Assembly (NCBI GenBank): GCA_964618725.1
Contig: CAZUBK010000004.1
Span: 15,485 to 79,484, forward strand
Direction: 5' to 3'
Length of the DNA: 64,000 nt
DNA from: an uncultured Pseudomonadales bacterium
GTDB taxonomy: Bacteria; Patescibacteriota; Microgenomatia; UBA1400; Chazhemtobacteraceae
Under the pieces are notes generated by a model. That model made no database searches and was not told the origin of the DNA. It worked only from the letters and a program-made list of their open reading frames with translations. This document shows positions 3,864-63,172 of this stretch, one piece after another. The position numbers and the translations under genes are program-made. Each line of letters opens with the position of its first letter. Positions within the stretch are counted from its first letter, which is position 1.

Positions 3864-5909
3864 CTATTCATCCAACTCCTTCTCACTTTCAACATTTTCT
3901 TTCTCCATTTCTTGTCCCTCCACCACCGGCTTCTTCCAAGTCGCCCAGTCACATTTGGGATATGTCTCACATCCATAGAACTCTCTCCCAAATCGCGTCT
4001 TCTTGATTACCACTCGACTACCACACTTCTCACACGTGGCTCCCTCCACATACTCAATATACTTGTCCTTGTACTTACAATCAGGAAACCGATCACAGGA
4101 AATAAACTTGCCATACCGCCCTTCCTTGATCACCAACTCCCCCGTCTTACACTCCGGACACTTCACTCCCAACTTCTCTACCGGAATCTCCACTCTCTCG
4201 CCATTTTTACTCACCTCCTCTATCCCTTTCTGAAACGGACCATAGAAGGCACTCAACATCTCGTTCCACTCTACCTTGCCTCTGGCAATATCATCCAGCT
4301 CATCCTCCATCTTCGCCGTGAAGTCATAGTCCATCTCCTTCATAAAATATCGGGTCAAGAAATCCACCACTGCCATCCCTACCTTAGTAGCAAAAAATCT
4401 TCTCTGTTGCCTCTCCACATACCCCCGATCCATGATTGTACTGATAATCGAGGCATAAGTACTCGGCCGCCCGATCCCCCGCTTCTCCAGCTCCTTCACT
4501 AACGAGGCGTCGTTAAATCTCGCCGGTGGCTCGGTGAATTTCTGCTCCTTCTTTACCTGGCTCAAATCCACCACCTCTCCCTCCGCTACTTCAGGTAAAA
4601 ACGTTTCCGCATCCTTCTTGTATAGCTTTCTCCACCCATCAAATTTCATTACCTCGCCATTAGCTTGCAAATCATACTTTTTATTATCTGTTCTCACCAC
4701 CACCCTCGTTGCATCAAAAACCGCCGGTACCATCTGACAGGCAATAGTGCGGCGCCAAATCAATCCATAAAGCTTGATCTGGTCCGCCGCTTCTTTCCCC
4801 TGCCCTTTGTATGTATGTGTCCCCATACTCATGTCTGCTGGCCTAATTGCCTCATGGGCCTCTTGTGCCACTACTTTACCCGAGGTCTTGTAGAAAACCG
4901 GCTCCTTTGGCAAGTACTCACTCCCAAACTCACTCTTCACAAATGTTCTCACTGCCTCGACTGCCGTTGGCGCCAAGTTAAGCGAGTCCGTTCGGTGATA
5001 GGTAATATCTCCCTGTTCGTAAAGCTTCTGTGCCACCCCCATCGTCTTCTTCGAACTCCAACCCAAGACATTAGCTGCTGCTTGTTGGAGGGTACTCGTC
5101 TTGAACGGCGGATGTGGCCAAGCCCGTCTTTCCTTCTTCTCTACCTCAACTATCTTCAACTTGGCACTCTTTAACTCCTTCTCAATTTTGTCTGCCGTCT
5201 CCCCCGTACCCACCACGGCCTTCTTTCCCGATATTCTAGTCAACTCAACCCAAAACTTTTCTTTCTTCCCCCCTATTACCTCGACACTAATCATCCAGTA
5301 CTCCACCGGTCTGAATGCCTCTATTTCTCTCTCTCGTTCCACTATCATCCGCAGTGCCACGCTCTGCACCCGTCCCGCTGACAAGCCGTACCGTACCTTC
5401 TTCCAAAGTAGAGGCGACAACTCATATCCCACCACTCGATCCAAGACTCTTCTTGCTTGTTGCGAGTTGACCATATCCATATCGATCTTTCGTGGATGTC
5501 CCATCGCCTCAAGGATCGCGTCTTTGGTAATCGAATGAAATACAATCCGGTCAAACCCTTTACCGTCTTTCTCCAGGATCTTGGCCACATGGAAGGCAAT
5601 CGCCTCTCCTTCTCGGTCCGGGTCGGTCGCCAGTATCACCTCCTCCGCCTTTTTTGCCGCTGCTTTAAGTTTTTTAACCGTATCTCCCTTGCCCCGCGTC
5701 TCGATGTATTCCGGAACAAACTCATATCCTACTTCTCCACTTTGCTTCTTTCCTTTGCCCTTTTTCTTTACCTCTTTAATCTCCACTCCAAACTTACTCT
5801 TCGGCAAATCCCGAATATGCCCCATACTAGCCAGTACTTGGTAATCCTTACCTAGATACTTTTCTAACGACTTTGTTTTGGTTGGACTCTCTACTATTAC
5901 TAACTTCAC
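3864..5909 (-). CDS. topA: DNA topoisomerase I with C-terminal zinc ribbons
   Basis: 681 aa. MKLVIVESPTKTKSLEKYLG Toprim N-terminus, catalytic Tyr region, and C-terminal C4 zinc ribbons (CPECKTG...CDRFPDC, CEKCGS...CETYPKC). Confidence 0.9.
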   Translation of the reverse strand: MKLVIVESPTKTKSLEKYLGKDYQVLASMGHIRDLPKSKFGVEIKEVKKKGKGKKQSGEVGYEFVPEYIETRGKGDTVKKLKAAAKKAEEVILATDPDREGEAIAFHVAKILEKDGKGFDRIVFHSITKDAILEAMGHPRKIDMDMVNSQQARRVLDRVVGYELSPLLWKKVRYGLSAGRVQSVALRMIVEREREIEAFRPVEYWMISVEVIGGKKEKFWVELTRISGKKAVVGTGETADKIEKELKSAKLKIVEVEKKERRAWPHPPFKTSTLQQAAANVLGWSSKKTMGVAQKLYEQGDITYHRTDSLNLAPTAVEAVRTFVKSEFGSEYLPKEPVFYKTSGKVVAQEAHEAIRPADMSMGTHTYKGQGKEAADQIKLYGLIWRRTIACQMVPAVFDATRVVVRTDNKKYDLQANGEVMKFDGWRKLYKKDAETFLPEVAEGEVVDLSQVKKEQKFTEPPARFNDASLVKELEKRGIGRPSTYASIISTIMDRGYVERQQRRFFATKVGMAVVDFLTRYFMKEMDYDFTAKMEDELDDIARGKVEWNEMLSAFYGPFQKGIEEVSKNGERVEIPVEKLGVKCPECKTGELVIKEGRYGKFISCDRFPDCKYKDKYIEYVEGATCEKCGSRVVIKKTRFGREFYGCETYPKCDWATWKKPVVEGQEMEKENVESEKELDE

Positions 5910-8479: not shown

Positions 8480-8492
8480 CAACCCACTCTAA

Positions 8493-8810
8493 CAAAAAAA
8501 GAAACCCCCTTGAGAGAGGGGGTAATAAAGTAAAGGCTCGCGATGAGCGTGCGAACCGGATGAAAACCGGCTTGCTGCCAGGCGTATTGGAGTAGGGGCT
8601 TCTTCGAAGCGCCATCTCGCAATATGGCTGGTCTTGCCGCCTACACTGGCGAAAGGTGTACCGTCGAAGCAACGCACCATCAAAGGCGCGTGCGGCCGAA
8701 ACTTTTCCGACCTCTCGACGGCTGAAGCAAGTGGCAGAAGTGGGGCGGCAATAAATAGTTGCCCCGTTGCCACATTTGGCCCCCCAAGGGGGCAGTTTTA
8801 GAGAAAATCT
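8493..8810 (-). ncRNA. candidate structured ncRNA, GC-rich; identity unresolved (RNase P RNA considered, not confirmed); strand uncertain
   Basis: Roughly 300-nt GC-rich stretch between mrdA and dprA with no credible ORF. On the minus strand it ends in a terminator, CCCCCUCUCUCAAGGGGG plus a U-run (plus coordinates 8491-8522). Internal long-range complementarity, for example GCCGUCGA with UCGACGG, and a GGCCAAAU motif. Confidence 0.3.
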
Positions 8811-8855
8811 TAACTTTTCAAGATACCAGTAATTTAACATATAAGATGCTCCCTG

Positions 8856-10487
8856 TCAATACCCTCTTTCCGCCACGTACCGGGCAATCTTCACAGCCAC
8901 CGGCCCAGCCTCATAGCTTCCCTCCCCTGCCTCCTCAAGTAGTACCGTTATCAACACGCCCTGCTCGTAATCTGCCAAAGTATACTCCCCACTCTCCGTT
9001 ACCCTTGGCACCACCACCGTGATCCAGGCATGTGGCAGTGTCTTCTCCCCACCGTGCTGAGCCGTCCCCGTCTTACATATCACTGGTGGCGTAAAACCAA
9101 AGAAGGGGAAAGCGGTTCCTCCACTACTACAGGCTGCCTTCATCCCCTGCCAAACAATCTCCCGTGTTTTTTGCCTTATCCCCACCTCCTGACACCTCGT
9201 CTCCTTATCCGGAATGAGCTTCAGAGCACATAGCTTCCCACTCACCACCGCCGAGACCATCCTAGCGATCTGCGCCGGCGAGGTCAACACATCTCCCTGT
9301 CCAATTGCCATGTGATATGTATTACCCAAGAACCATCTCTCTCCTGTCCGCTTCTCTCGCTCCAGTGGCGTCGAAACTAGTCCCGCGGTCTCGGCTGGCC
9401 AAGACAGTCCCGTCTTTTGCCCCAATCCTAGTTTCTTCGACCACTCAACCAATTTATCCACTCCAACCATCTCACCCGTCTTGTAAAAAAAGATATCATT
9501 GCTCCTTCCCAATGCTTTCACTACGTTAATCGCTCCCTCAGTCCGCCCATATTGATCAAAGTACCAACTCCCATACCGGTATATCCCCACCTTTAGTTCA
9601 CCCGTGTCTTCAATTAACATTCCCTCATCTATTTTCCTTTCTTCCAACCCTGCTACCGCTGTCACCAACTTAAATATCGATCCCGGCGGGAAACCTCCTC
9701 CCATGCTTCGATTAAACATCGGTTTATCTTCTAGATCTTCCAATACCTCTACTGGACTTTTGTATCTACCCGCCGACGGCAATCCAGAAAATACATTAGG
9801 GTCAAACGTCGGCCAACTGACCAATCCCACAATCTCCCCCGTTGCCACCTTGTTTACTACGATAGCTCCTCGCACCTTCCCTTTTTCTATTTCATAGTCT
9901 CCCAGAATTCTGCCAATTGTCTTCTGTAACTCCCCATCGATAGTCAAAGTAATAGCTTTCTTGACTGCCCCTTGTTTTTTAGCAACAACTCTTTCTCTCT
10001 CACCCATTGCCGTCACCTCCACCAACTCTTCTCCGTTCTTACCTCTGATCTCCCTATCAAACAATTTCTCAATCCCCATCTTTCCCACTAGATCACCACT
10101 ATCAAAACACAAAAGACACTCTTTAATCTCCTCCTCAGTCACCACTCCCACAAATCCCACCACATGGACGCCCGCCTCTCCCAGCGGATACTCCCTCACA
10201 ACCTTTTCTCCAATCAGACTATTTCTGGCCAAAATACTCCCAAATCTATCAACAATTACTCCCCGCTCCGCGGCAATCCTTCTCACCTCTATCCGATTTC
10301 CTTCAGCCAATACCTGATTTCGTTCTCCCGTAACTACTTGCAGAAAAAAAGCCCGCGATAAAAGCCAAGCAAATATTCCGATCGGCAACACAACCAACCA
10401 ACCCATTCGTCTATTTGTGGTTTTAACCGTCATCTTCTCCCTTATCCAGAGGTTCTCCATCAGTAGACTGAAATCTTTTTTTCTCAT
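8856..10487 (-). CDS. mrdA: penicillin-binding protein 2 (peptidoglycan transpeptidase)
   Basis: 543 aa. N-terminal TM segment, SIFK (SxxK), SND, and KTGTA motifs. Confidence 0.85.
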   Translation of the reverse strand: MRKKDFSLLMENLWIREKMTVKTTNRRMGWLVVLPIGIFAWLLSRAFFLQVVTGERNQVLAEGNRIEVRRIAAERGVIVDRFGSILARNSLIGEKVVREYPLGEAGVHVVGFVGVVTEEEIKECLLCFDSGDLVGKMGIEKLFDREIRGKNGEELVEVTAMGERERVVAKKQGAVKKAITLTIDGELQKTIGRILGDYEIEKGKVRGAIVVNKVATGEIVGLVSWPTFDPNVFSGLPSAGRYKSPVEVLEDLEDKPMFNRSMGGGFPPGSIFKLVTAVAGLEERKIDEGMLIEDTGELKVGIYRYGSWYFDQYGRTEGAINVVKALGRSNDIFFYKTGEMVGVDKLVEWSKKLGLGQKTGLSWPAETAGLVSTPLEREKRTGERWFLGNTYHMAIGQGDVLTSPAQIARMVSAVVSGKLCALKLIPDKETRCQEVGIRQKTREIVWQGMKAACSSGGTAFPFFGFTPPVICKTGTAQHGGEKTLPHAWITVVVPRVTESGEYTLADYEQGVLITVLLEEAGEGSYEAGPVAVKIARYVAERGY

Positions 10488-10493
10488 ACGCCG

Positions 10494-10904
10494 CTATCTT
10501 AGTCTAATATCCCCTCCCAAATTAAGCCGACCTTGGATCCAAAAACTAAATACTGCCACCCCCCATAAAAGCAAGACTCCAATCACATCCCCACCTAGAA
10601 ATGCCTTCTGCCAAACAAGCATGCTTATCAGTAACCACCCCCACTCAAGATATACCAACCCAGTAAACTGACGTCTAATAAACCATAATCCCGCCAAGAA
10701 TACGCTGATTATCACTCCAACACTCCCCACCCACCTCATTGTCAACAAGTCTAACGTCACTCCCATCAAAAATGACCACCACAAAACTGCTACGACTTTT
10801 CTATTTGATACACTCCATACCCAGACCAGCGTCAGCGGTACTGCCATGAAACTGCTTTCCAATAACACTGCTAGTAGTCCTAAAAGCATCCAACTCCACT
10901 TCAT
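10494..10904 (-). CDS. mreD: polytopic membrane protein, probable MreD
   Basis: 136 aa, five hydrophobic segments, immediately upstream of mrdA in the same orientation. Confidence 0.45.
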   Translation of the reverse strand: MKWSWMLLGLLAVLLESSFMAVPLTLVWVWSVSNRKVVAVLWWSFLMGVTLDLLTMRWVGSVGVIISVFLAGLWFIRRQFTGLVYLEWGWLLISMLVWQKAFLGGDVIGVLLLWGVAVFSFWIQGRLNLGGDIRLR

Positions 10905-10923
10905 GCACCTATACTAATCCAAT

Positions 10924-11100
10924 CTCGAAGATCCTGCTTAGGGTCGAAGATCCTGAGCTTTAGCGAATGGGTCGCAGATCCTGCTTAGGGTCGAAGATCC
11001 TGAGCTTTAGCGAATGGGTCGAAGATCCTGAGCTTTAGCGAATGGGTCGCAGATCCTGAGCTTTAGCGAATGGGTCGCAGATCCTGAGCTTTAGCGAAGG
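10924..11100 (+). repeat. tandem array of 19/28-nt units, GTCG(A/C)AGATCCTG + CTTAGG or AGCTTTAGCGAATGG; no spacers
   Basis: Seven consecutive units, each containing GATC, filling the divergent intergenic region between mreD and mreC. The same family occurs inverted at 41062-41171, and a single unit occurs at 62074-62098. Confidence 0.9.
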
Positions 11101-11108
11101 AATAGAAT

Positions 11109-11894
11109 ATGTCCATGCCATCACGCACCGACAGCTTTCCTTTCCTTCACTTTATCACCATATTTCTTCTCAGTCTTATTCTCATCGGACTCTCGTCACA
11201 GTCCAAACTTAACTTTCTAAGTAACCCTGTCAATTACATCGCTGCCCCTCTCCGCCTTCCCCTTTTTCAACTCCGTTACAAAGTAAACTCTAATTTCAGT
11301 AGCATCAAACAGTTCTCCTATCAAGGTCGGCTCATTAAAGATCTCAAGCGCCAAAACGCCAATCTTCTCGTCGTTGGCCAAAAAGTCAAAGCTCTCGAAG
11401 CGGAAAATCTTGCTCTAAGATCAACTATTAAGTCTCCCCCCACAACCTCTGCCCCTCTACTCCCCGTTAAAATCATCAGTCTCTCCCGTTTCGCCTACAT
11501 CAACCAAGGTAGTAAAGCAGGTATCAAACCTGGCCTTCCCCTTGTTGTCGACAACACCCTGGTCGGTATCGTTACCAATGTCACCAACTACATCAGTCAG
11601 ATCCGTCTTATCACCGACAAAGATACCGACCTTCCTGCTATAACCTCCTCAGCAGTGACTGGGCAAATAAATTACCAAAATACAACTCTTCACCTTACCC
11701 AGGTCTTGCAAAAAGACAGTCTAATCCCCGAAGAACCCATCTTCACTAAAGGCAGCGAATTAATCCCCGCTGGCCTCCTCATCGGCACCATTGCCTCAAT
11801 TGAACCAAACAAGACCAACGTCTACCAGTCCGCTACCATTACTCCTACCATCACCATCCTCGATCAACAAACCGTCTTTGTCATTCTTGATTAA
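11109..11894 (+). CDS. mreC: rod shape-determining protein MreC-like
   Basis: 261 aa. N-terminal TM segment, coiled-coil (LKRQNANLLVVGQKVKALEAENLALRS), then a beta-rich domain with GLPLVVDNTLVGIV. Confidence 0.6.
   Translation: MSMPSRTDSFPFLHFITIFLLSLILIGLSSQSKLNFLSNPVNYIAAPLRLPLFQLRYKVNSNFSSIKQFSYQGRLIKDLKRQNANLLVVGQKVKALEAENLALRSTIKSPPTTSAPLLPVKIISLSRFAYINQGSKAGIKPGLPLVVDNTLVGIVTNVTNYISQIRLITDKDTDLPAITSSAVTGQINYQNTTLHLTQVLQKDSLIPEEPIFTKGSELIPAGLLIGTIASIEPNKTNVYQSATITPTITILDQQTVFVILD
11847..11882 (+). repeat. direct repeat copy 1 (mreC 3' end), duplicated at 12442-12477
   Basis: accatcaccatcctcgatcaacaaaccgtctttgtc. 35 of 36 nt are identical to copy 2. Looser similarity extends about 10 nt on each side. 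Confidence 0.8.
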
Positions 11895-11929
11895 AAAGCG
11901 GGGCCATCTGATCGAATGGCCCCGATACA

Positions 11930-12433
11930 TTACTCACTCTCCAACCAAGGCTCCAAAGCTTCCTTCACAATCATTTCAAGGATCTCATCAGAATTGAAAC
12001 CACGCGACATAGCCGCAACAGAGAGTCCTTGCGACTCTTTGGATATCGCCAAACTAAGTATCAGTTGTCTATCCCCCATAAGTACAATCCAATATCGAAT
12101 TGAGTGGTACTGCTCCCAAATCGCCACTAGGAGCGCTTTCCAACTCATGTACTCGGTGTTGCCAATGTCATAGTACCGTTCGGCAAATAGCTGGACCAAT
12201 TCACACGGCGAAGAAATGCCAAAGACGCCAGGACCATATACTCCACTATTCATTCCTGAGTCGATCTGCAAGACGAAGTTGGCGTTATCGGCAAACTTCT
12301 TCCTAAGTACCCGCTCGATCTTGGTTACCATCTCGTATGGAGATAGACTTGCTTTAAGAGTTTGATTGTACAACGTACACCTCCCTAATAATGTCAAAAG
12401 AATCTCATCTATTTTCTCATCTTCGAAACCCAT
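11930..12433 (-). CDS. hypothetical protein, about 167 aa, carried on the insert between the direct repeats
   Basis: ORF from the track. The ATG at 12433 is preferred over the TTG at 12439. Its RBS, GGTGATGGTGG, lies within repeat copy 2. Confidence 0.5.
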   Translation of the reverse strand: MGFEDEKIDEILLTLLGRCTLYNQTLKASLSPYEMVTKIERVLRKKFADNANFVLQIDSGMNSGVYGPGVFGISSPCELVQLFAERYYDIGNTEYMSWKALLVAIWEQYHSIRYWIVLMGDRQLILSLAISKESQGLSVAAMSRGFNSDEILEMIVKEALEPWLESE

Positions 12434-12441
12434 AGTCAACC

Positions 12442-12477
12442 ACCATCACCATTCTCGATCAACAAACCGTCTTTGTC
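12442..12477 (+). repeat. direct repeat copy 2; would encode an alternative mreC C-terminus
   Basis: accatcaccattctcgatcaacaaaccgtctttgtc. Read in the mreC frame it gives ...TITILDQQTVFVVLE followed by a stop. Confidence 0.8.
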
Positions 12478-12489
12478 GTTCTGGAATGA

Positions 12490-14040
12490 TCAAGATTTGT
12501 GTATCCTCGCCGCATCCCAGTCTATCAAGCGTAGCACTGTTGAATAATTCTTATCTACCAAGAATCTCGGATCATACTTGAATTTATCTGCTCTCCAGGG
12601 AATTGTATTCAAATCATAACGAAGCGCCAACATCTCATTAAGGTAATTTGTCTCAATTATCTCAATCACGAAGTTGCCGTCATGGGGATGCACATGATTG
12701 ATATTGTTTCCGTCACTATCCACATTGACTAAAGCTTTAAGTGTCTTTTGTTTCATTTTTTCCAATCGCGATCTCACACGATCAAAAACCAATCGTTCAG
12801 AAAAAGAAAGATCCCGTTCCAGCAAATCAAATTCGCGCAATGAAATACCACAGTAACGCGACACCACCCTCACCTTATCGTCAATTTTTCTCCCCCGTTC
12901 CAAGATCGGCGCAACCGGAATCCCCATCTCAGCCGCCATCCTCCATGCTTTTAAAGCATCTTTTTCTATCGAGTTTATCAAAACAACCGGCTGTTCCTTA
13001 CTCATTTTCATTACATGTAATGTGGAACCGGTTTTCTCAGTCTTTACCGCGAATCTGGACATTTCCAAAACTTTTTGAGTGGAGAAGTTCCAAAAACCGG
13101 AACGGCTAACTATTAGTCCTAAAAACTGCAATTGAGGGTGATCCAGATTCTCTACCACTCCTCTAATCGCATCTCTCGCCCTTTGACTGATCTCTTCAAC
13201 TTTTTCTCCACTGACTCCAACTTGAGTCAACCAATACTCCAGAGTTCTCACCGCCCGTTTTCCCAGATTTTCCCTTGTCTCTTCTGCCATTTTCTTCCAG
13301 CCCAACTCCATCTCTTTCCACCCCCTTGCTCCTAATCTTTTTTCCATCTGTACCACTAATGACCCATTGTCAATCACAAAGTCTCTCGCTCTCTTTGTTT
13401 TTATCTCAACACCGTCAGTTATCTCACCTTCTCGTGAGTCACGAGGCCAGTCCTGCAGTTCCAAATAGTGTTCACAACTCAGCCTCACTGATTCCCACTT
13501 AACAGCTTGCCACCCTTTAATCATTTGAAGAACTTCACCCGCTTGCCCATTTCGAGCACATTCCACCAAAATACGGGGCAGGTCCTTTTCATCAGGTACC
13601 TCTTCACCTTCGTGATTGTCCCGTAACATCCTAACCACATCTGCCGCTCTACCATGTCCAGCACAAAAACGTAAAACAAAGCTCATCCTCAACATATCCG
13701 CCCGATCCATTCCCTTCAGCCTCGACAACACCTTCTCTACGTGACCACCATCAATCAAAACCAGAAAGGTGCTATCAAACCTATTTGTGACCAACTCAGC
13801 ATCACTAACTTCTGACATTTTCTCCGCCATTGCCCCAGTTAATTCCGGAAAATTCTCAAACATCATTTTGTTTGATCCCACCCATTCGGGGAATTTCAAA
13901 CAAGCCCCCTCCGGCTCAATCAACACCTTCTTCAACTCCTCCACAACTTCCTGTCTGACCTTCTTCAGCTCCTCTACCGCCCTTTTATATTCAACTAATT
14001 TCTCTTCTTCACCCGCCCCTATGAAAGATTCCGAATCCAT
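12490..14040 (-). CDS. large hypothetical protein, 516 aa, with a C-terminal protein-kinase-like (PKL/APH-like) domain
   Basis: C-terminal HVHPHDGNFVIE (HxDxxxxN catalytic-loop-like) and LRLIDWDAA (DFG-equivalent IDWD). The N-terminal 350 aa has no recognised domain. Confidence 0.4.
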   Translation of the reverse strand: MDSESFIGAGEEEKLVEYKRAVEELKKVRQEVVEELKKVLIEPEGACLKFPEWVGSNKMMFENFPELTGAMAEKMSEVSDAELVTNRFDSTFLVLIDGGHVEKVLSRLKGMDRADMLRMSFVLRFCAGHGRAADVVRMLRDNHEGEEVPDEKDLPRILVECARNGQAGEVLQMIKGWQAVKWESVRLSCEHYLELQDWPRDSREGEITDGVEIKTKRARDFVIDNGSLVVQMEKRLGARGWKEMELGWKKMAEETRENLGKRAVRTLEYWLTQVGVSGEKVEEISQRARDAIRGVVENLDHPQLQFLGLIVSRSGFWNFSTQKVLEMSRFAVKTEKTGSTLHVMKMSKEQPVVLINSIEKDALKAWRMAAEMGIPVAPILERGRKIDDKVRVVSRYCGISLREFDLLERDLSFSERLVFDRVRSRLEKMKQKTLKALVNVDSDGNNINHVHPHDGNFVIEIIETNYLNEMLALRYDLNTIPWRADKFKYDPRFLVDKNYSTVLRLIDWDAARIHKS

Positions 14041-14053
14041 ACTCTCAAATATA

Positions 14054-14641
14054 CTATACCCATTTCAGCCCCAGACTTACTAAGGACAGTCCCAAAGCCG
14101 CCCCCACCCCCACCTGTAACCAAGTATGCTTTTTGCTTATCACTCGACTCCACAAAACCAGCAATAGCACCAACACCAACCACCAGTATTTATCCCAACC
14201 ATAGAAATAGTTAAAAAACGCTACCAGTACCCCATTCACCCCGGCATGAACCGAGATCTTCCAAAACAAAGTCACAAGTCCAAAAATAACCGCCAATGTC
14301 CAAAAAACAAACAGAATCTTAAACAGCGCCTCTCTCCCCAAAAAATAGGCCAACACCACTCCAAACAGGTGACACAGGATAGTAAAGAAATACAAACCCA
14401 ATCTCTCCTGACGCTTGGTTGTGTCCCAATCAGAGATATATCCTTTTTTCAAGTTGTACAAAAAGTACATTGCCGGAAGGATCGCATCTACCATTAACAA
14501 CAAAACCATAAATCTCCACCTAAATCCATTACTCAATACAAACCAAACAGCCGCCGAAAGAAGAAAGGGGATCTCAATTACCGGATCAAAAACTCGTGAG
14601 ACAACCATCGCCAACTTCTTCTGCATCATTCCAGTATACAA
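14054..14641 (-). CDS. polytopic membrane protein, PAP2-like phosphatase (weak)
   Basis: 195 aa. SVHAG and SRVISKKHTWLQ resemble PAP2 motifs 2 and 3 (PSGH, SRx5Hx3D with D replaced by Q). Confidence 0.35.
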   Translation of the reverse strand: MYTGMMQKKLAMVVSRVFDPVIEIPFLLSAAVWFVLSNGFRWRFMVLLLMVDAILPAMYFLYNLKKGYISDWDTTKRQERLGLYFFTILCHLFGVVLAYFLGREALFKILFVFWTLAVIFGLVTLFWKISVHAGVNGVLVAFFNYFYGWDKYWWLVLVLLLVLWSRVISKKHTWLQVGVGAALGLSLVSLGLKWV

Positions 14642-14642
14642 A

Positions 14643-15707
14643 CTATCTCAACCCTCCCGTTACCTTTACTTTCTTGAGTAGCACTTCATCCTCCAGTACC
14701 TTACTCGCCCCCCTAACCACCGCCTCCATAGGTTTTTCTGTAATCCAAACCGGCATCCCCGTCTCCTCAGAAATCAGCTTGTCTATCCCCCTAAGTAGCG
14801 ACCCTCCCCCCGCCATAATCATTCCCTTCTCCAAGATATCGCTCACCAGCTCCGGCGGCGTCTCCTCAATCACTAAGGCAATCTCGTTTAGAATCTGTCT
14901 TACGACCGGTGCCAATGCCTCCCGTAACTCTACACTGGTGATCTTCTGACTCTTGGGTAAGCCGCTTTCTAAGCTCCTTCCCCTGACCACCGTCGTCAGC
15001 GGCTTCCCCTCTTTCTCACATTTCAACGGATATGCCGACCCAACCGCAATCTTAACCTCTTCCGCCGTCGACTCACCAAGTAGTAAATTGTACTTCAGCC
15101 TAGCAAAGCTAATTACCGCCTCGGTTAGCTCATCCCCCGCTACTCTAAGACTTCTGTTTAATACCAACCCCCCCAAAGAAATGATCCCTATTTCACTTGT
15201 TCCCCCTCCGATATCGACAATCATGTGCCCCGTCGGATCCTCCACCGGCACACCTGCCCCAATTGCCGCCGCCATTGGCTCTTCAATCAAAAAGGCCCTC
15301 CTCGCCCCCGCCGCCAAAGCTGCTTCTTGAACCGCTCTCCTCTCTACCTCCGTCACCCCTGAAGGAATCCCCACCACCACCCGAGGCAAAGATAAGCCCA
15401 GACCAAATCCCCTCTGTAAACGATGTATCTCCTTAATATAATGATGTAACATCGCCTCTGCCGCGTCAAAGTCGGCGATTACTCCATCCCGAAGTGGTCG
15501 TATCACCTCAATATTCTTCGGCGTCTTACCCAACATTTTTTTTGCCTCTGTTCCAATCGCCAAAATCTCCTTACTTTTTACCTGTCTGGCCACCACCGAC
15601 GGCTCTCTCACTACTATGCCTTTTCCTTTGATACTCACTACCGTATTGGCAGTTCCCAAATCAATTCCAATATCATGAGTAAATAGATTCCAAAAACGGC
15701 TAAACAT
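14643..15707 (-). CDS. mreB: rod shape-determining protein MreB (actin homolog)
   Basis: DIGIDLGTANTVV phosphate-1 motif. The start is taken at MFSRFWNLF... The track ORF extends 23 codons further upstream. Confidence 0.85.
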   Translation of the reverse strand: MFSRFWNLFTHDIGIDLGTANTVVSIKGKGIVVREPSVVARQVKSKEILAIGTEAKKMLGKTPKNIEVIRPLRDGVIADFDAAEAMLHHYIKEIHRLQRGFGLGLSLPRVVVGIPSGVTEVERRAVQEAALAAGARRAFLIEEPMAAAIGAGVPVEDPTGHMIVDIGGGTSEIGIISLGGLVLNRSLRVAGDELTEAVISFARLKYNLLLGESTAEEVKIAVGSAYPLKCEKEGKPLTTVVRGRSLESGLPKSQKITSVELREALAPVVRQILNEIALVIEETPPELVSDILEKGMIMAGGGSLLRGIDKLISEETGMPVWITEKPMEAVVRGASKVLEDEVLLKKVKVTGGLR

Positions 15708-15789
15708 CACGGCAAGAATACCATACGCACGGCTCCACGGCACTTGCAGAGTGGTATACAATGATAGATATATCAATTAGAAAGAACCC

Positions 15790-31227: not shown

Positions 31228-31300
31228 GCCGAGATAGCTCAGTTGGCAGAGCACAATATTGGTAATATTGAGGTCCTGGGTTCGATTCCCAGTCTCGGCT
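31228..31300 (+). tRNA. tRNA-Thr (anticodon GGU)
   Basis: GCCGAGA acceptor, GCUC-AGUUGGCA-GAGC D-arm, CAAUA-UUGGUAA-UAUUG anticodon arm (GGU), CUGGG-UUCGAUU-CCCAG T-arm. TGGTAAAAT lies 15 nt upstream. Confidence 0.85.
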
Positions 31301-31312
31301 CCGACAGACTAG

Positions 31313-31436
31313 GGAAGCAAACCCTCGGGTTCAATATCCAGACCATAATGTGATTATGGGCGCAGATATAAGAGGAAGCACAGGACAACATCACAATATG
31401 CATTAGTATATTGTGAGTAAGGACGAGCAAGCTCTT
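31313..31436 (+). ncRNA. conserved structured element, copy 1 (family also at 62976-63095); tRNA-linked; function unknown
   Basis: Immediately 3' of tRNA-Thr(GGU). Hairpin CCATAAT-gtg-ATTATGG, then conserved GCGCAGATATAAGAGGAAGCACAGGACA, a second 8-bp hairpin, and a conserved ...GACGAGCAAGCT tail. Copy 2 carries compensatory changes in hairpin 1. Confidence 0.5.
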
Positions 31437-31454
31437 ATTCCCAGTCTCGGCTCC
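31437..31454 (+). repeat. 18-nt direct duplicate of the tRNA-Thr(GGU) 3' end (ATTCCCAGTCTCGGCTCC)
   Basis: Identical to 31285-31302 inside the tRNA. The two copies bracket the 134-bp structured element. Confidence 0.8.
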
Positions 31455-40502: not shown

Positions 40503-41061
40503 ATCCCATACTTTTACTTATATTTTGATATTTGACCAATTCACACTCCATCACCTGCTTTAATCCTTTTTTCAATCTACCACTCAACGCACCATAGGGG
40601 AGTCTAAAAAAACTAATTCCCAGGAGTCTTTTCGGACAGCGACTCACCTACTAAGCTAAAATACAGTTACGTCGCACATTGTTACATAATATCAACCGCC
40701 TACAATACCTCTAAAAGGCTTTCTGACCCCTGCAATATACTGACACAAACCAACAGAAAGGGCAGACTTCATCCTCCCAGGGACAAACTAATATAATTTT
40801 CTATCAACTTGATATTATCTCGAGTGCAGCCTCTTCAAATCTAATGACACAGTCTGATATGTCATTATTTCCCTCTATTTCTTTCAACATTAATTCCCGC
40901 ATTTCTCCTTTTTCCACACTTTATCCACTCACCACTCAAAATAGACCTTATAACAGATCAAGCACTTTTTTTACTCAAGTTACCCTCTCAAAAACTCTTT
41001 GAGTAATTTATTTACACAACTACCCCACCCTCTAACCCAACTATTGGCTAAACCCTCTCCC

Positions 41062-41171
41062 CCTTACAGGATCTTCGACCCATTCGCTGAAGCTCAGGAT
41101 CTTCGACCCTTACGGGATCTTCGACCCATTCGCTGAAGCTCAGGATCTTCGACCCTTACGGGATCTTCGAC
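41062..41171 (-). repeat. tandem array of the GTCGAAGATCC repeat family, inverted relative to the array at 10924-11100
   Basis: Reverse-complement units GGGTCGAAGATCC(C/T)GTAAGG and GGGTCGAAGATCCTGAGCTTCAGCGAATGG, four units in all. It sits at the end of a 560-nt non-coding stretch, immediately upstream of the rpmG -10. Confidence 0.9.
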
Positions 41172-62063: not shown

Positions 62064-62073
62064 CCAATTTTTA

Positions 62074-62098
62074 AGATCCTGAGCTTCAGCGAATGGGT
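62074..62098 (+). repeat. solo unit of the GATC repeat family (AGATCCTGAGCTTCAGCGAATGGGT)
   Basis: Matches the units of the arrays at 10924-11100 and 41062-41171. It lies immediately after the nusG stop. Confidence 0.8.
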
Positions 62099-62142: not shown

Positions 62143-62445
62143 TTGTCAGACCAAGAAAACGAAAACAAAAAGGGTAATCAACTACCCGAGGTCGAAATCC
62201 TTACAGGATCGATCGACTACATCCAAAACGAAAGCGATCGCCGTCTTTGTCCCAACTCCCCAATTCGCCTACGCCGTCTTCAACTCAAGCAAGAATATGA
62301 ACAACAACTGAGCAAGCTCCAAGAAGACTGCACCCACCCCCTGGCCTACCAAGTCTGGTCCTCCTGGTCCTTTATGGACCCCGACTACGACTCCGGTGAC
62401 CGCTATTGCCCCGAATGCGGCAAAAGCTACCACATCAATCCCTGA
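62143..62445 (+). CDS. small coiled-coil plus C-terminal zinc-ribbon protein; paralog of 47633..47845
   Basis: TTG start 5 nt after an AGGAGGTG RBS. TGGTACAAT extended -10 at 62109-62117. C-terminal ...CTHP...CPECGKSYH. Confidence 0.45.
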   Translation: MSDQENENKKGNQLPEVEILTGSIDYIQNESDRRLCPNSPIRLRRLQLKQEYEQQLSKLQEDCTHPLAYQVWSSWSFMDPDYDSGDRYCPECGKSYHINP

Positions 62446-62475
62446 AACCCCTTCACAACCAGCCATCCTCCCCGG

Positions 62476-62913
62476 ATGGCTTTTCCTTTCTTCCAATTTG
62501 CTACTATTAGTTCAATGTCCGACACTAAAACTACTCTTCTGGCCTCTCTTCCTCTCCTTTTCATCGTCACCACCCTTATCGCCGCCCTTATCATCCTTCC
62601 CAAAACTGATCTTGATATCCGCGACAAAGCTGCCGAACCAAGAATCAGCTCGCCTTCATCACTACTCCCTACTCCTACTCCCAATTTAGCTCCGGATTAT
62701 CAACTCGAACCAGAAACTGCTTGCACTGCCCTTTACGACCCTGTTTGTGGCATCGACAATCAAACGTACCCAAATGGATGCGAGGCCTTAAAGAAAGGTG
62801 TCAGAATCGCATACAACACAGCCTGCACTTCTCCTTCCAGTTCACGCCCCACCTTTTTCAATCGATCCGCCACTCCTACTCCTACTCTCTCCAATCTCCC
62901 CAGTGCCTATTAA
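62476..62913 (+). CDS. membrane-anchored Kazal-like domain protein (atypical four-Cys Kazal)
   Basis: N-terminal TM segment, then C-TALYDPV-C-GIDNQTY-PNG-C-x14-C. This matches Kazal C2-x7-C3-x6-Y-x3-C4...C6. C1 and C5, one disulfide pair, are absent. Confidence 0.55.
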   Translation: MAFPFFQFATISSMSDTKTTLLASLPLLFIVTTLIAALIILPKTDLDIRDKAAEPRISSPSSLLPTPTPNLAPDYQLEPETACTALYDPVCGIDNQTYPNGCEALKKGVRIAYNTACTSPSSSRPTFFNRSATPTPTLSNLPSAY

Positions 62914-62975: not shown

Positions 62976-63095
62976 GGAAGCGCGAACCCAAGTGCGATAT
63001 CAAGACGATAACATAGTTATCGGCGTAGATATAACAGGAAGCACAGGCCATTCATTTCAATAATAAATATTATTGAAAGTCTGCCGAGCAAGCTG
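62976..63095 (+). ncRNA. conserved structured element, copy 2, in the rplK 5' leader (family also at 31313-31436)
   Basis: GGAAGC..AACCC..GATATCAAGAC, hairpin CGATAAC-ata-GTTATCG, GCGTAGATATAACAGGAAGCACAGGCCA, a second hairpin TTCAATAATA..TATTATTGAA, then ..GCCGAGCAAGCT. About 78 nt upstream of the rplK ATG. A TGTGATACAAT extended -10 lies near 62935. Confidence 0.5.
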
Positions 63096-63172
63096 TTAAA
63101 TCATTTTTCTTTTCCTAAATTCTTGGTACGCGCCAACTAAAGATCCATCGGATCTTTCATTTACGTAGACAC

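Follow-up and report, generated by a model that had tools for sequence, protein, structure and literature searches.

The 3′ end of mreC is present twice in the window (the whole stretch of 64,000 nucleotides that was analysed), and the 2 copies enclose a short segment that carries 1 orphan gene and an intrinsic terminator. The repeat at the mreC end is real, sharp-edged, and far beyond chance. We tentatively favor a lineage-specific insertion by recombination, in which the mreC end would have provided the homology and the resident end would have been pushed downstream; we rate this explanation somewhat short of an even chance. The features of the locus are as follows.

10494–10904, minus strand: mreD-like gene, divergent from mreC; its product is 33% identical (E 4e-10) to the protein encoded upstream of mreC in a relative, L003

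11109–11894, plus strand: mreC, complete, 261 aa (Pfam MreC PF04085, E 6.8e-25)

11847–11894, plus strand: repeat copy 1, TITILDQQTVFVILD, ending in TAA; the final 15 codons and the stop codon of the working mreC

11899–11924, minus strand: intrinsic terminator of the minus-strand unit, with a 10-bp stem that includes 7 G-C pairs; its T-run (11889–11898) overlaps the mreC stop codon

11930–12433, minus strand: orphan gene, 167 aa (P0001), with an atypical but coding codon signal

12434–12441, no strand: spacer of 8 nt that separates the ATG of the 167-aa gene from copy 2, which begins sharply where the spacer ends

12442–12489, plus strand: repeat copy 2, TITILDQQTVFVVLE, ending in TGA; the putatively displaced mreC end, which forms a hairpin on either strand

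12490–14040, minus strand: orphan protein, 516 aa (P0002), with host-typical codon usage (codon score 0.37)

14054–14641, minus strand: PAP2/LpxE-like membrane phosphatase, 195 aa, a weak match (Pfam PAP2 E 3.5e-4, under the cutoff)

14643–15776, minus strand: mreB (Pfam MreB_Mbl E 7e-130), head of the probable minus-strand unit

A repeat search returned a direct repeat between 11847–11890 and 12442–12485, with 41 of 44 nt identical and a start-to-start spacing of 595 nt. Read in frame, the similarity of both copies extends through the stop codon, which gives 43 identical nt of 48 and a perfect core of 24 nt. The initial annotation had described this duplication with a length of 36 to 50 nt, an end of copy 2 at 12477, and an insert of 560 bp; the duplication itself was borne out, its length is 48 nt, copy 2 ends at 12489, and the DNA between the copies measures 547 nt in a repeat unit of 595 nt. 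The local alignment score of the repeat is 73, compared with 18.6 ± 2.4 (maximum 31) for shuffled sequences, and when every ORF of 90 aa or more was screened by matching its last 63 nt against the surrounding 3 kb in both directions, only mreC gave a match. The flanks of the copies are dissimilar (left flank, 7 of 40 nt matching; right flank, 13 of 40), and the right edge of the repeat is exactly the mreC stop. Copy 2, which does encode in frame the alternative mreC terminus proposed at the outset (VFVVLE followed by a stop codon), takes up 48 of the 56 nt in the gap separating the 516-aa and 167-aa genes, and its TGA (12487–12489) adjoins TCA (12490–12492), the opposite-strand stop of the 516-aa gene. 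Elsewhere in the same window, the 3′ 18 nt of tRNA-Thr(GGT) are repeated exactly 134 nt downstream.

The contig is metagenome-derived, and the corresponding contig of an independent assembly (Logan contig L001, SRR12113420) breaks within mreC at approximately window position 11438; both facts would suit an assembly artefact that joined 2 strain variants of the mreC end. Against this, L001 is 100% identical across both copies, and the 2 assemblies agree base for base over both copies and all 4 junctions. The variants flank the 24-nt core within the reach of a single 31-mer, and the 31-mers of L001 span this core, thus the phase of the 2 copies is fixed. The junction of the 167-aa gene start with copy 2 must also exist in real reads. 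We regard an artefact as extremely improbable.

Between the copies lies, as initially annotated, a single minus-strand gene of 167 aa. In frame, its codon usage gives a log-likelihood of +0.18 bits per codon, compared with −0.3 to −0.6 in the other frames; the scores of host genes are 0.49 ± 0.11 and never lower than 0.31 (z about −2.9 for the 167-aa gene). The gene is coding, yet it is compositionally atypical for the genome. Its GC skew is −0.22 compared with −0.40 to −0.54 in the neighbors, a value only at the 80th percentile of windows. The 167-aa protein has self-matches only in 5.8 billion clusters, no homologue among 1.84 billion representative proteins, no family in Pfam, PADLOC, PHROGs, or NCBIfam, and nothing in the PDB by phmmer; the gene is also absent from IMG/VR, phages, and plasmids. 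Two candidate homologues from an exhaustive HMMER scan (P0015 and P0016) are long repeat proteins that score by summed repeats and were discarded as artefacts. The single-sequence AlphaFold model has a pLDDT of 49.8, and a Foldseek search against the PDB and BFVD returned nothing with E < 0.05. GNAT-fold proteins recur among the weak matches of the 167-aa protein, which is a hint rather than a result.

The terminator beyond the 3′ end of this gene is the only terminator-like site that the terminator scan called in 10400–14700, with a fold of −19.6 kcal/mol (z −3.8). Neither the remainder of the window nor the 516-aa protein shows paralogy with the insert. A tandem duplication of the 595-nt unit was considered and rejected; the insert is unlike 12490–13036, and the 167-aa protein is unlike the C-terminus of the 516-aa protein. 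The evidence supports the view that the DNA enclosed by the copies has the character of an insert, with a self-contained gene and its terminator. The earlier proposal of a small cassette inserted at the mreC end is upheld as far as the insert-like character is concerned (the gene is an orphan, atypical, and absent downstream of mreC in L003), and no recombinase that would point to a mobile cassette or to site-specific insertion was found among ORFs of at least 200 aa in 1–53 kb.

The insert is embedded in an mre locus in which mreC is inverted relative to mreB, mreD, and PBP2. The MreC match reaches position 146 of the 147 positions of PF04085, thus the last MreC residues belong to the domain. 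The mreD-like gene has no Pfam match, and the PAP2-like protein matches NCBIfam LpxE at E 1.4e-5, far below the cutoff of that family. From mreB to the 167-aa gene, the minus-strand intergenic gaps are 1, 13, and 56 nt, and this spacing suggests a probable minus-strand unit composed of mreB, the PAP2-like gene, the 516-aa gene, the 167-aa gene, and the terminator. No promoter of its own was supported for the 167-aa gene by the promoter scan, in which sigma-70-like sites were fewer than in shuffles. The 25 nt before its ATG lie in copy 2 and include a GGTGATGGTGG tract. A ribosome-binding site had been assigned to this place; the position inside copy 2 holds, and the identity as a ribosome-binding site does not, few genes of the window having a clear Shine-Dalgarno sequence.

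The 516-aa protein returned only itself in the protein search, has no significant family in Pfam, PADLOC, PHROG, or NCBIfam, and has nothing among PDB sequences by phmmer. The kinase-like C-terminus attributed to it in the initial annotation could not be substantiated: no kinase family of Pfam matched the protein, even when its C-terminal 216 aa were searched separately with E allowed up to 10, and the AlphaFold model (pLDDT 43.5) is unusable. Only a motif-level resemblance to kinases, seen by eye, is left (HxHxDGN ... IDWD).

The closest MreC in the protein search is 48% identical and is encoded on a 2.4-kb contig, and none of the next matches is above 30%. L003, the only relative found, has the same layout of mreD (minus strand) and mreC (plus strand) as the window. 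Its mreC stop lies directly against the stop of a convergent neighbor, which is how copy 2 meets the 516-aa gene in the window, and there is no 167-aa gene behind its mreC. As far as this 1 available relative goes, the comparison of mreC loci that the initial annotation had called for agrees with an insertion in the window. A degenerate mreC-end repeat in L003 was tried and set aside as unconvincing (score 25 compared with 18.9 ± 2.5 for shuffles, P about 0.03). A search of genome contigs returned only an unrelated Chryseobacterium locus, and neither the 24-nt core nor an MreC profile had a match in metagenome scans. The protein collection, with just 1 member in the MreC cluster, gave no empty-site variant, and there was no second copy of the 595-nt unit or of the 24-nt core in IMG/VR or JGI contigs.

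In the explanation that we tentatively favor, mreC (plus strand) and the 516-aa gene (minus strand) would ancestrally have met stop codon to stop codon. A foreign or otherwise unrelated piece of 547 nt with an orphan gene and a strong terminator would have entered between them, in an event that duplicated the final 16 codons of mreC; copy 1 would complete the working mreC, and copy 2 would be the displaced end that still touches the stop of the 516-aa gene. In the most likely route, donor DNA, which we infer to have been taken up from a related cell, would have brought an mreC end with the terminator and the 167-aa gene behind it. The donor would have paired with the resident mreC through that homology, and its other end would have been joined illegitimately 48 nt upstream of the resident stop, so that the resident end would be displaced downstream and not replaced. 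This process would amount to homology-facilitated illegitimate recombination or “3′-end displacement.” After the insertion, mreC would have stayed intact, and the minus-strand unit (mreB, PAP2-like, and 516-aa genes) would have acquired both a fourth gene and a terminator that blocks antisense reading into mreC. Copy 2 would have become the leader of the new gene, with a hairpin and a purine-rich tract before the ATG. A counterpoint to this route is that a donor closely related to the host should give a host-like gene, yet the composition of the 167-aa gene is atypical. In addition, homology-facilitated illegitimate recombination, as studied by de Vries and Wackernagel in 2002 and Prudhomme et al. 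in 2002, reportedly deletes recipient DNA in most cases and does not duplicate it.

There is a precedent in models of T6SS and Rhs loci (PMC5361080; PMC2935791), which invoke one-sided homologous anchoring and displacement of the former 3′ part. Comparison with homology-facilitated illegitimate recombination and 3′-end (C-terminal) displacement, in the form suggested for effector loci of the Rhs, CDI, and T6SS types (PMC2935791; PMC5361080), revealed that (i) in both cases new DNA would have entered behind a conserved gene segment that acts as the putative homologous anchor; (ii) the old 3′ part is kept downstream as an orphan fragment in the same orientation, here copy 2, which is in frame with its stop codon and beside its original neighbor; and (iii) a recombinase is unnecessary, and the present host has genes of a DNA-uptake apparatus in the window (DprA and type IV pilus). 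By contrast, the putative anchor here is the housekeeping morphogenesis gene mreC and not a polymorphic toxin gene, and the displaced piece is only 16 codons long, with no new coding content. The incoming gene, moreover, has the opposite orientation and becomes part of another operon, and there is 1 event instead of an array.

The main rival to this reading is a decayed integrase-borne element of the microCIME type, in which the att site would mimic the mreC 3′ end, copy 1 would be attL and copy 2 attR, and deletions would have left 1 cargo gene and the terminator. Direct repeats with a 24-nt perfect core that overlap a gene 3′ end and restore its frame are the standard footprint of tyrosine or serine integrases, the tRNA-Thr(GGT) repeat would be a second such footprint in the window, and the cargo gene is compositionally atypical. 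Decayed att-flanked CIMEs and microCIMEs have been described, with imperfect direct repeats of tens of bp around a perfect core, a repeat that overlaps a gene end and leaves the ORF intact, and small integrase-less remnants flanked by att sites (PMC7563491). The present unit differs from these elements in that it is only 595 bp long with a single orphan gene, no integrase was detected in the scanned ORFs, and no other copy of the core or of the gene occurs in IMG/VR, JGI contigs, phages, or plasmids. Within and beside the unit, the 167-aa, 516-aa, and PAP2-like proteins include no tyrosine or serine recombinase, and none was found among 37 ORFs across 1–53 kb (36 ORFs of at least 200 aa and the 195-aa PAP2-like ORF). 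Moreover, mreC is poorly conserved and is not known as an att site or integration target. We consider a decayed element unlikely, and still the rival to be taken most seriously.

Other mobile-element classes share single traits with the locus. Direct repeats flank the inserted DNA as in a target-site duplication of an IS or transposon, which the initial annotation had already dismissed, correctly: the repeat here is 48 nt long and 10% diverged compared with 2–15 identical bp, the unit has no terminal inverted repeats (score 12 compared with a shuffle mean of 10.8), and no transposase occurs in the scanned ORFs. A single promoter-less ORF of approximately 0.5 kb inserted as a unit resembles an integron gene cassette, a class rejected on the finding of no attC-type site (neither GTTRRRY nor RYYYAAC cores in 11847–12489 on either strand), no IntI in the scanned ORFs, and no attI. 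In contrast to such cassettes, the hairpin behind the ORF is a G+C-rich terminator with a T-run, and a duplicated gene end does not occur on the flanks of integron cassettes. A TR/VR pair of a diversity-generating retroelement (DGR) was likewise rejected; the differences between the copies are not adenine-specific, and no RVT family occurs in the scanned ORFs.

The 5 differences between copy 1 and copy 2 (C/T, A/G, T/G, T/A, and A/G) comprise 2 synonymous changes, 2 conservative ones (I/V and D/E), and a stop-to-stop change (TAA/TGA). When 5 substitutions are drawn at random, every one is coding-compatible in only approximately 0.5% of trials (P about 0.005), thus the divergence arose under coding constraint. 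Such constraint is expected if the copies represent 2 alleles of mreC, or if only the working copy changed, and the latter explains it equally well. At the 3 synonymous or stop differences, copy 1 has the plus-strand host-preferred codons (ATC, CTT, and TAA), and copy 2 has 3 extra G relative to copy 1; these features fit an in-situ history and a foreign copy 2 equally well.

Copy 2 folds into a hairpin of −9.9 kcal/mol on the plus strand and −13.3 kcal/mol (z −2.1) as minus-strand RNA, and copy 1 forms no stable hairpin (plus strand, −2.4 kcal/mol; minus strand, −6.1 kcal/mol). Each of the 5 differences closes a base pair in the copy 2 hairpin (P about 0.01). Five random substitutions starting from copy 1 equal the stability of copy 2 in 0.7–1.0% of trials, and the hairpin is lost starting from copy 2 in 6–13% of trials. 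In L003, the antisense of the final 16 mreC codons also folds (−10.1 kcal/mol, z −2.5), which is suggestive only.

These observations bear on an origin in situ, namely a local junction duplication by slippage or staggered-break repair when or before the 547 nt arrived, which we consider rather improbable. Copy 2 would then be ancestral, an mreC end doubling as a hairpin at the spacerless junction, and copy 1, placed beside a proper terminator, would have lost this constraint and drifted to the host-preferred codons that it now has. This history would account for the base pairs closed by all 5 differences, and changes limited to the coding copy are automatically coding-compatible. Read from copy 2 to copy 1, the changes are G→A, G→T, G→A, T→C, and A→T, of which 4 (the 3 G losses and T→C) follow the G-poor, C-rich plus strand of the genome; the fold of the L003 mreC end also points this way. 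Nevertheless, an in-situ origin requires 2 events or an unknown process that gives a 48-nt target duplication, it leaves the source of the orphan gene and terminator unexplained, and the statistical case for the hairpin is modest (z about −2) and post hoc.

Copy 2 might alternatively be kept mainly for a function of its own, as an RNA hairpin or as 48 nt of antisense sequence within the mRNA of the mreB operon. By pairing with the mreC mRNA at its 3′ end, this antisense segment would link the inverted mreC with the other mre genes. Copy 2 lies inside a probable transcript, in the 56 nt between 2 same-strand genes, and besides its hairpin a duplex of −66.8 kcal/mol is possible between the reverse complement of copy 2 and copy 1 RNA. 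The intramolecular hairpin would compete with pairing in trans, and a function does not explain the origin of the copy. The hairpin is without a U-run and was not called by the terminator scan, so it is neither a terminator nor an attenuator. The possibility raised initially, that the repeat is a conserved terminator or attenuator, is contradicted by this and by the lack of such a repeat in L003. A functional role as the main reason for copy 2 seems very unlikely to us. We give similarly little credence to a bolder combination, in which the 595-bp unit would be a miniature recombinase-less cassette of a DNA-scavenging bacterial lineage that uses a mimic of the last 16 codons of mreC, an essential cell-shape gene, as its recombination site and is moved by host recombination or by a recombinase in trans, the site copy doubling as a selected hairpin or antisense leader that links the mreB operon to the inverted mreC.

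The locus alone does not reveal a new type of system, and it appears to be a genuine, if rather ordinary, scar left when a gene was acquired by a bacterium from a very poorly sampled group. Under the insertion by recombination that we tentatively favor, it would be a clean single-event example of a new gene entering a spacerless convergent junction, with an important gene left undamaged through duplication of its end, and the same insertion would have brought a terminator that insulates mreC from antisense read-through. Together with close relatives or reads, the locus could show whether this uncultivated lineage gains genes through one-sided homologous recombination of DNA that was taken up or through small elements flanked by att sites.

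The 3′ end of mreC is present in 2 direct-repeat copies that flank an insert of 547 nt, which contains a minus-strand gene for a 167-aa protein and its terminator. The features of the region are listed below in minus-strand order.

14643–15776, minus strand: mreB, first in this order
14054–14641, minus strand: PAP2/LpxE-like membrane protein (weak match)
12490–14040, minus strand: 516-aa protein
Between the 516-aa and 167-aa genes: spacer of 56 nt, composed of copy 2 and 8 nt
12442–12489, plus strand: copy 2 of the repeat, encodes TITILDQQTVFVVLE then TGA
11930–12433, minus strand: 167-aa protein
Stem 11899–11924 and T-run 11889–11898, minus strand: intrinsic terminator after the 167-aa gene
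11847–11894, plus strand: copy 1 of the repeat, encodes TITILDQQTVFVILD then TAA
11109–11894, plus strand: mreC, which converges on the minus-strand unit
Beyond a tandem array of 28-nt repeats, minus strand: mreD and PBP2

A repeat search of the window aligned positions 11847–11890 with 12442–12485 (41/44 identical, 595 nt apart), and reading in the mreC frame revealed that the similarity extends through the stop codon, with 43 of 48 nt identical between the copies, including a 24-nt perfect core. Similarity is lost sharply in the flanks (7/40 nt on the left and 13/40 on the right). The repeat is not a chance resemblance; the local alignment score of the copies is 73, compared with 18.6 ± 2.4 for shuffled sequence, and when each ORF of 90 aa or more had its last 63 nt searched against the 3 kb to either side, mreC alone gave a match. 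The Logan contig L001 (4920 bp, run SRR12113420) is identical to the window over both copies and all junctions. Phase-switch misassembly is unlikely, because the variant positions flank the 24-nt core on both sides and a single 31-mer reaches them. The duplicated mreC end around an insert, as described in the initial annotation, is thus borne out by the 43/48 match, its sharp edges, and a second assembly. The public gene call on L001 includes a 44-aa ORF (4428–4562, about 11796–11930 of the window, minus strand), which crosses the terminator hairpin, is antisense to copy 1, overlaps the stop of the 167-aa gene (TAATG), and is probably spurious.

The TGA of copy 2 (12487–12489) directly adjoins TCA (12490–12492), the opposite-strand stop of the 516-aa gene; with the 595-nt unit removed, the stop codons of mreC and the 516-aa gene would adjoin each other directly. 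The same arrangement exists in L003, a 2.4-kb contig with the only relative found (MreC P0004, 48% identical, too distant for an empty-site control in a lineage that is almost unsampled), in which the mreC TAA directly adjoins the stop codon of an unrelated, cysteine-rich gene that converges on mreC. No convincing repeat of the mreC end was seen in L003. In the window, mreC is the lone inverted gene relative to mreB, mreD, and PBP2 (10494–15776), and 3 unrelated genes separate it from mreB. The divergent mreD(−)/mreC(+) layout is common to the window and L003, and the inversion of mreC is therefore much older than the repeat. The 516-aa protein is an orphan with host-like codon usage (score 0.37). 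Its supposed kinase-like C-terminus found no support in Pfam, including a search with the C-terminal 216 aa alone, or among PDB sequences; the structure model was poor (pLDDT 43.5), and a motif-level kinase resemblance, read by eye, is all that is left.

The 167-aa protein is likewise an orphan. Among 5.8 billion clusters it matched only itself, and in an exhaustive HMMER scan against 1.84 billion representatives the only sequences recovered besides the protein itself were 2 long repeat proteins, rejected as homologues since their scores come from summed repeats. No matches were found in IMG/VR, phage, and plasmid searches, in the Pfam, PADLOC, PHROG, and NCBIfam families, or among PDB sequences. 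The single-sequence structure model is poor (pLDDT 49.8), and no significant match came from fold searches in 2 libraries; the weak matches in both repeatedly include GNAT-fold proteins, which is a hint only. In a codon log-likelihood model trained on 22 minus-strand genes of the window, the ORF scored +0.18 bits per codon in frame and −0.3 to −0.6 in the other 5 frames. It is plausibly a gene, of atypical composition: its score is below those of all host genes tested (0.49 ± 0.11, minimum 0.31), and its GC skew is −0.22 versus −0.40 to −0.54 in its neighbours, although this is only the 80th percentile of windows. The insert resembles neither other parts of the window nor the 516-aa protein, which rules out tandem duplication as the source of the 595-nt unit, and contains no terminal inverted repeats or integron core sites.

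Across the whole window, plus-strand GC skew is −0.2 to −0.45 independent of gene direction, plus-strand genes favour C-ending codons (third positions 2542 C versus 769 G), and spurious long plus-strand ORFs are abundant opposite minus-strand genes. The interval 8483–8855, which separates a DprA-like gene from PBP2, contains no credible ORF and no Rfam family at gathering score, and its GC skew is unusually weak.

Copy 1 and copy 2 differ at 5 positions: (i) ATC/ATT, synonymous; (ii) ATT/GTT, I/V; (iii) CTT/CTG, synonymous; (iv) GAT/GAA, D/E; and (v) TAA/TGA, stop/stop. In simulations of 5 random substitutions, about 0.5% of trials yielded nothing but synonymous, stop-preserving, or conservative changes. 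All 5 differences convert mismatches to base pairs in copy 2, whose folding energies are −9.9 kcal/mol (plus strand) and −13.3 kcal/mol (minus-strand RNA), compared with −2.4 and −6.1 kcal/mol for copy 1. Five random substitutions in copy 1 gave the stability of copy 2 in 0.7–1.0% of trials; in the reverse direction, random substitutions in copy 2 abolished the hairpin in 6–13%. Copy 1 holds the plus-strand-preferred codon at the synonymous and stop positions (ATC 56% versus ATT 35%; CTT 28% versus CTG 7%; TAA 8 and TGA 4 of 17 genes), and its lack of 3 G present in copy 2 follows the direction of the strong plus-strand G depletion of the genome. This substitution pattern fits 2 histories. In one, the copies would be 2 alleles of mreC that had diverged in separate genomes, one beside a real terminator and the other abutting a convergent gene, with the hairpin within its last codons. 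In the other, the duplication would have been local, copy 2 would retain the ancestral sequence, and the working copy would since have taken on all the changes. In L003, the antisense of the final 16 codons of mreC folds at −10.1 kcal/mol (z −2.5), which points weakly to a gene end that contains a hairpin.

In our preferred reading, with route, direction, and donor inferred, DNA was inserted by way of homology to the mreC end, and the resident end was displaced. Incoming DNA carrying an mreC end, the terminator, and the 167-aa gene would have paired with mreC of the recipient, followed by illegitimate joining of the far end of the incoming DNA at a point 48 nt upstream of the resident stop codon. 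This logic is that of homology-facilitated illegitimate recombination, and matches the "3′-end displacement" put forward for the loci of T6SS effectors and Rhs (PMC5361080; PMC2935791). DNA uptake is plausible, as DprA and type IV pilus components are encoded in the window. The main rival explanation is a microCIME-like, att-flanked remnant (PMC7563491) left by the decay of an integrase-borne element. The repeat has the right form for this, and a second footprint of the type lies in the window at the 3′ end of tRNA-Thr(GGT); however, no recombinase was found within or beside the unit or in ORFs of 200 aa or longer across 1–53 kb, nor was a second copy of the unit or core in IMG/VR or JGI contigs. 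From the initial annotation, an insertion that duplicated a gene end and is not an IS duplication stands, but mobility and site-specific recombination are putative.

The 3′ 18 nt of tRNA-Thr(GGT) (31228–31302) are repeated exactly at 31437–31454, 134 nt downstream, within a 47-nt match at 70% from 31408. This second duplicated gene 3′ end around a small insert (134 nt) resembles an att remnant. A structured element (about 110 nt) occurs in 2 copies that are about 78% identical, one at 31329–31435, inside that insert and upstream of a response-regulator gene, and the other at 62992–63098, just upstream of rplK. Compensatory changes affect 3 of its base pairs, and covariation is seen in a second hairpin too. 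It had no match in Rfam and is possibly a leader RNA that has not been described before. The genes nusG and rplK are usually adjacent. Here, 2 small ORFs lie between them (62143–62913), of which, read by eye, one has CxxC pairs and the other has an N-terminus that looks signal-like and cysteines in a Kazal-like pattern (CGIDNQTYPNGCEALKKG). A 28-nt unit (GGGTCGAAGATCCTGAGCTTTAGCGAAT) is present in about 6 tandem copies in the mreD/mreC divergent spacer (10941–11098), recurs inverted 30 kb away (41061–41171; 2.4 copies, period 46 nt), and has one copy after nusG (62073–62098). It is a dispersed intergenic repeat family, which lacks spacers and is therefore not CRISPR-like.

The mreC-end locus is read here as an acquisition scar of a familiar kind. 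The mreC gene is complete, and its Pfam MreC match reaches profile position 146 of 147, so the last residues lie within the MreC domain; an insertion in this stretch would survive only if the gene end were regenerated. Copy 2 would now serve as the leader of the 167-aa gene, with a GGTGATGGTGG tract 6–16 nt ahead of the ATG, in a window where few genes have a clear Shine-Dalgarno sequence. The computed duplex between the reverse complement of copy 2 and the mreC mRNA end has an energy of −66.8 kcal/mol, and pairing of a copy 2 transcript with that end is a speculation. The terminator (−19.6 kcal/mol, z −3.8) is the only terminator-like site in 10400–14700. As read from the sequence, the minus-strand unit would acquire both a distal gene and a terminator that may shield mreC from antisense transcription.
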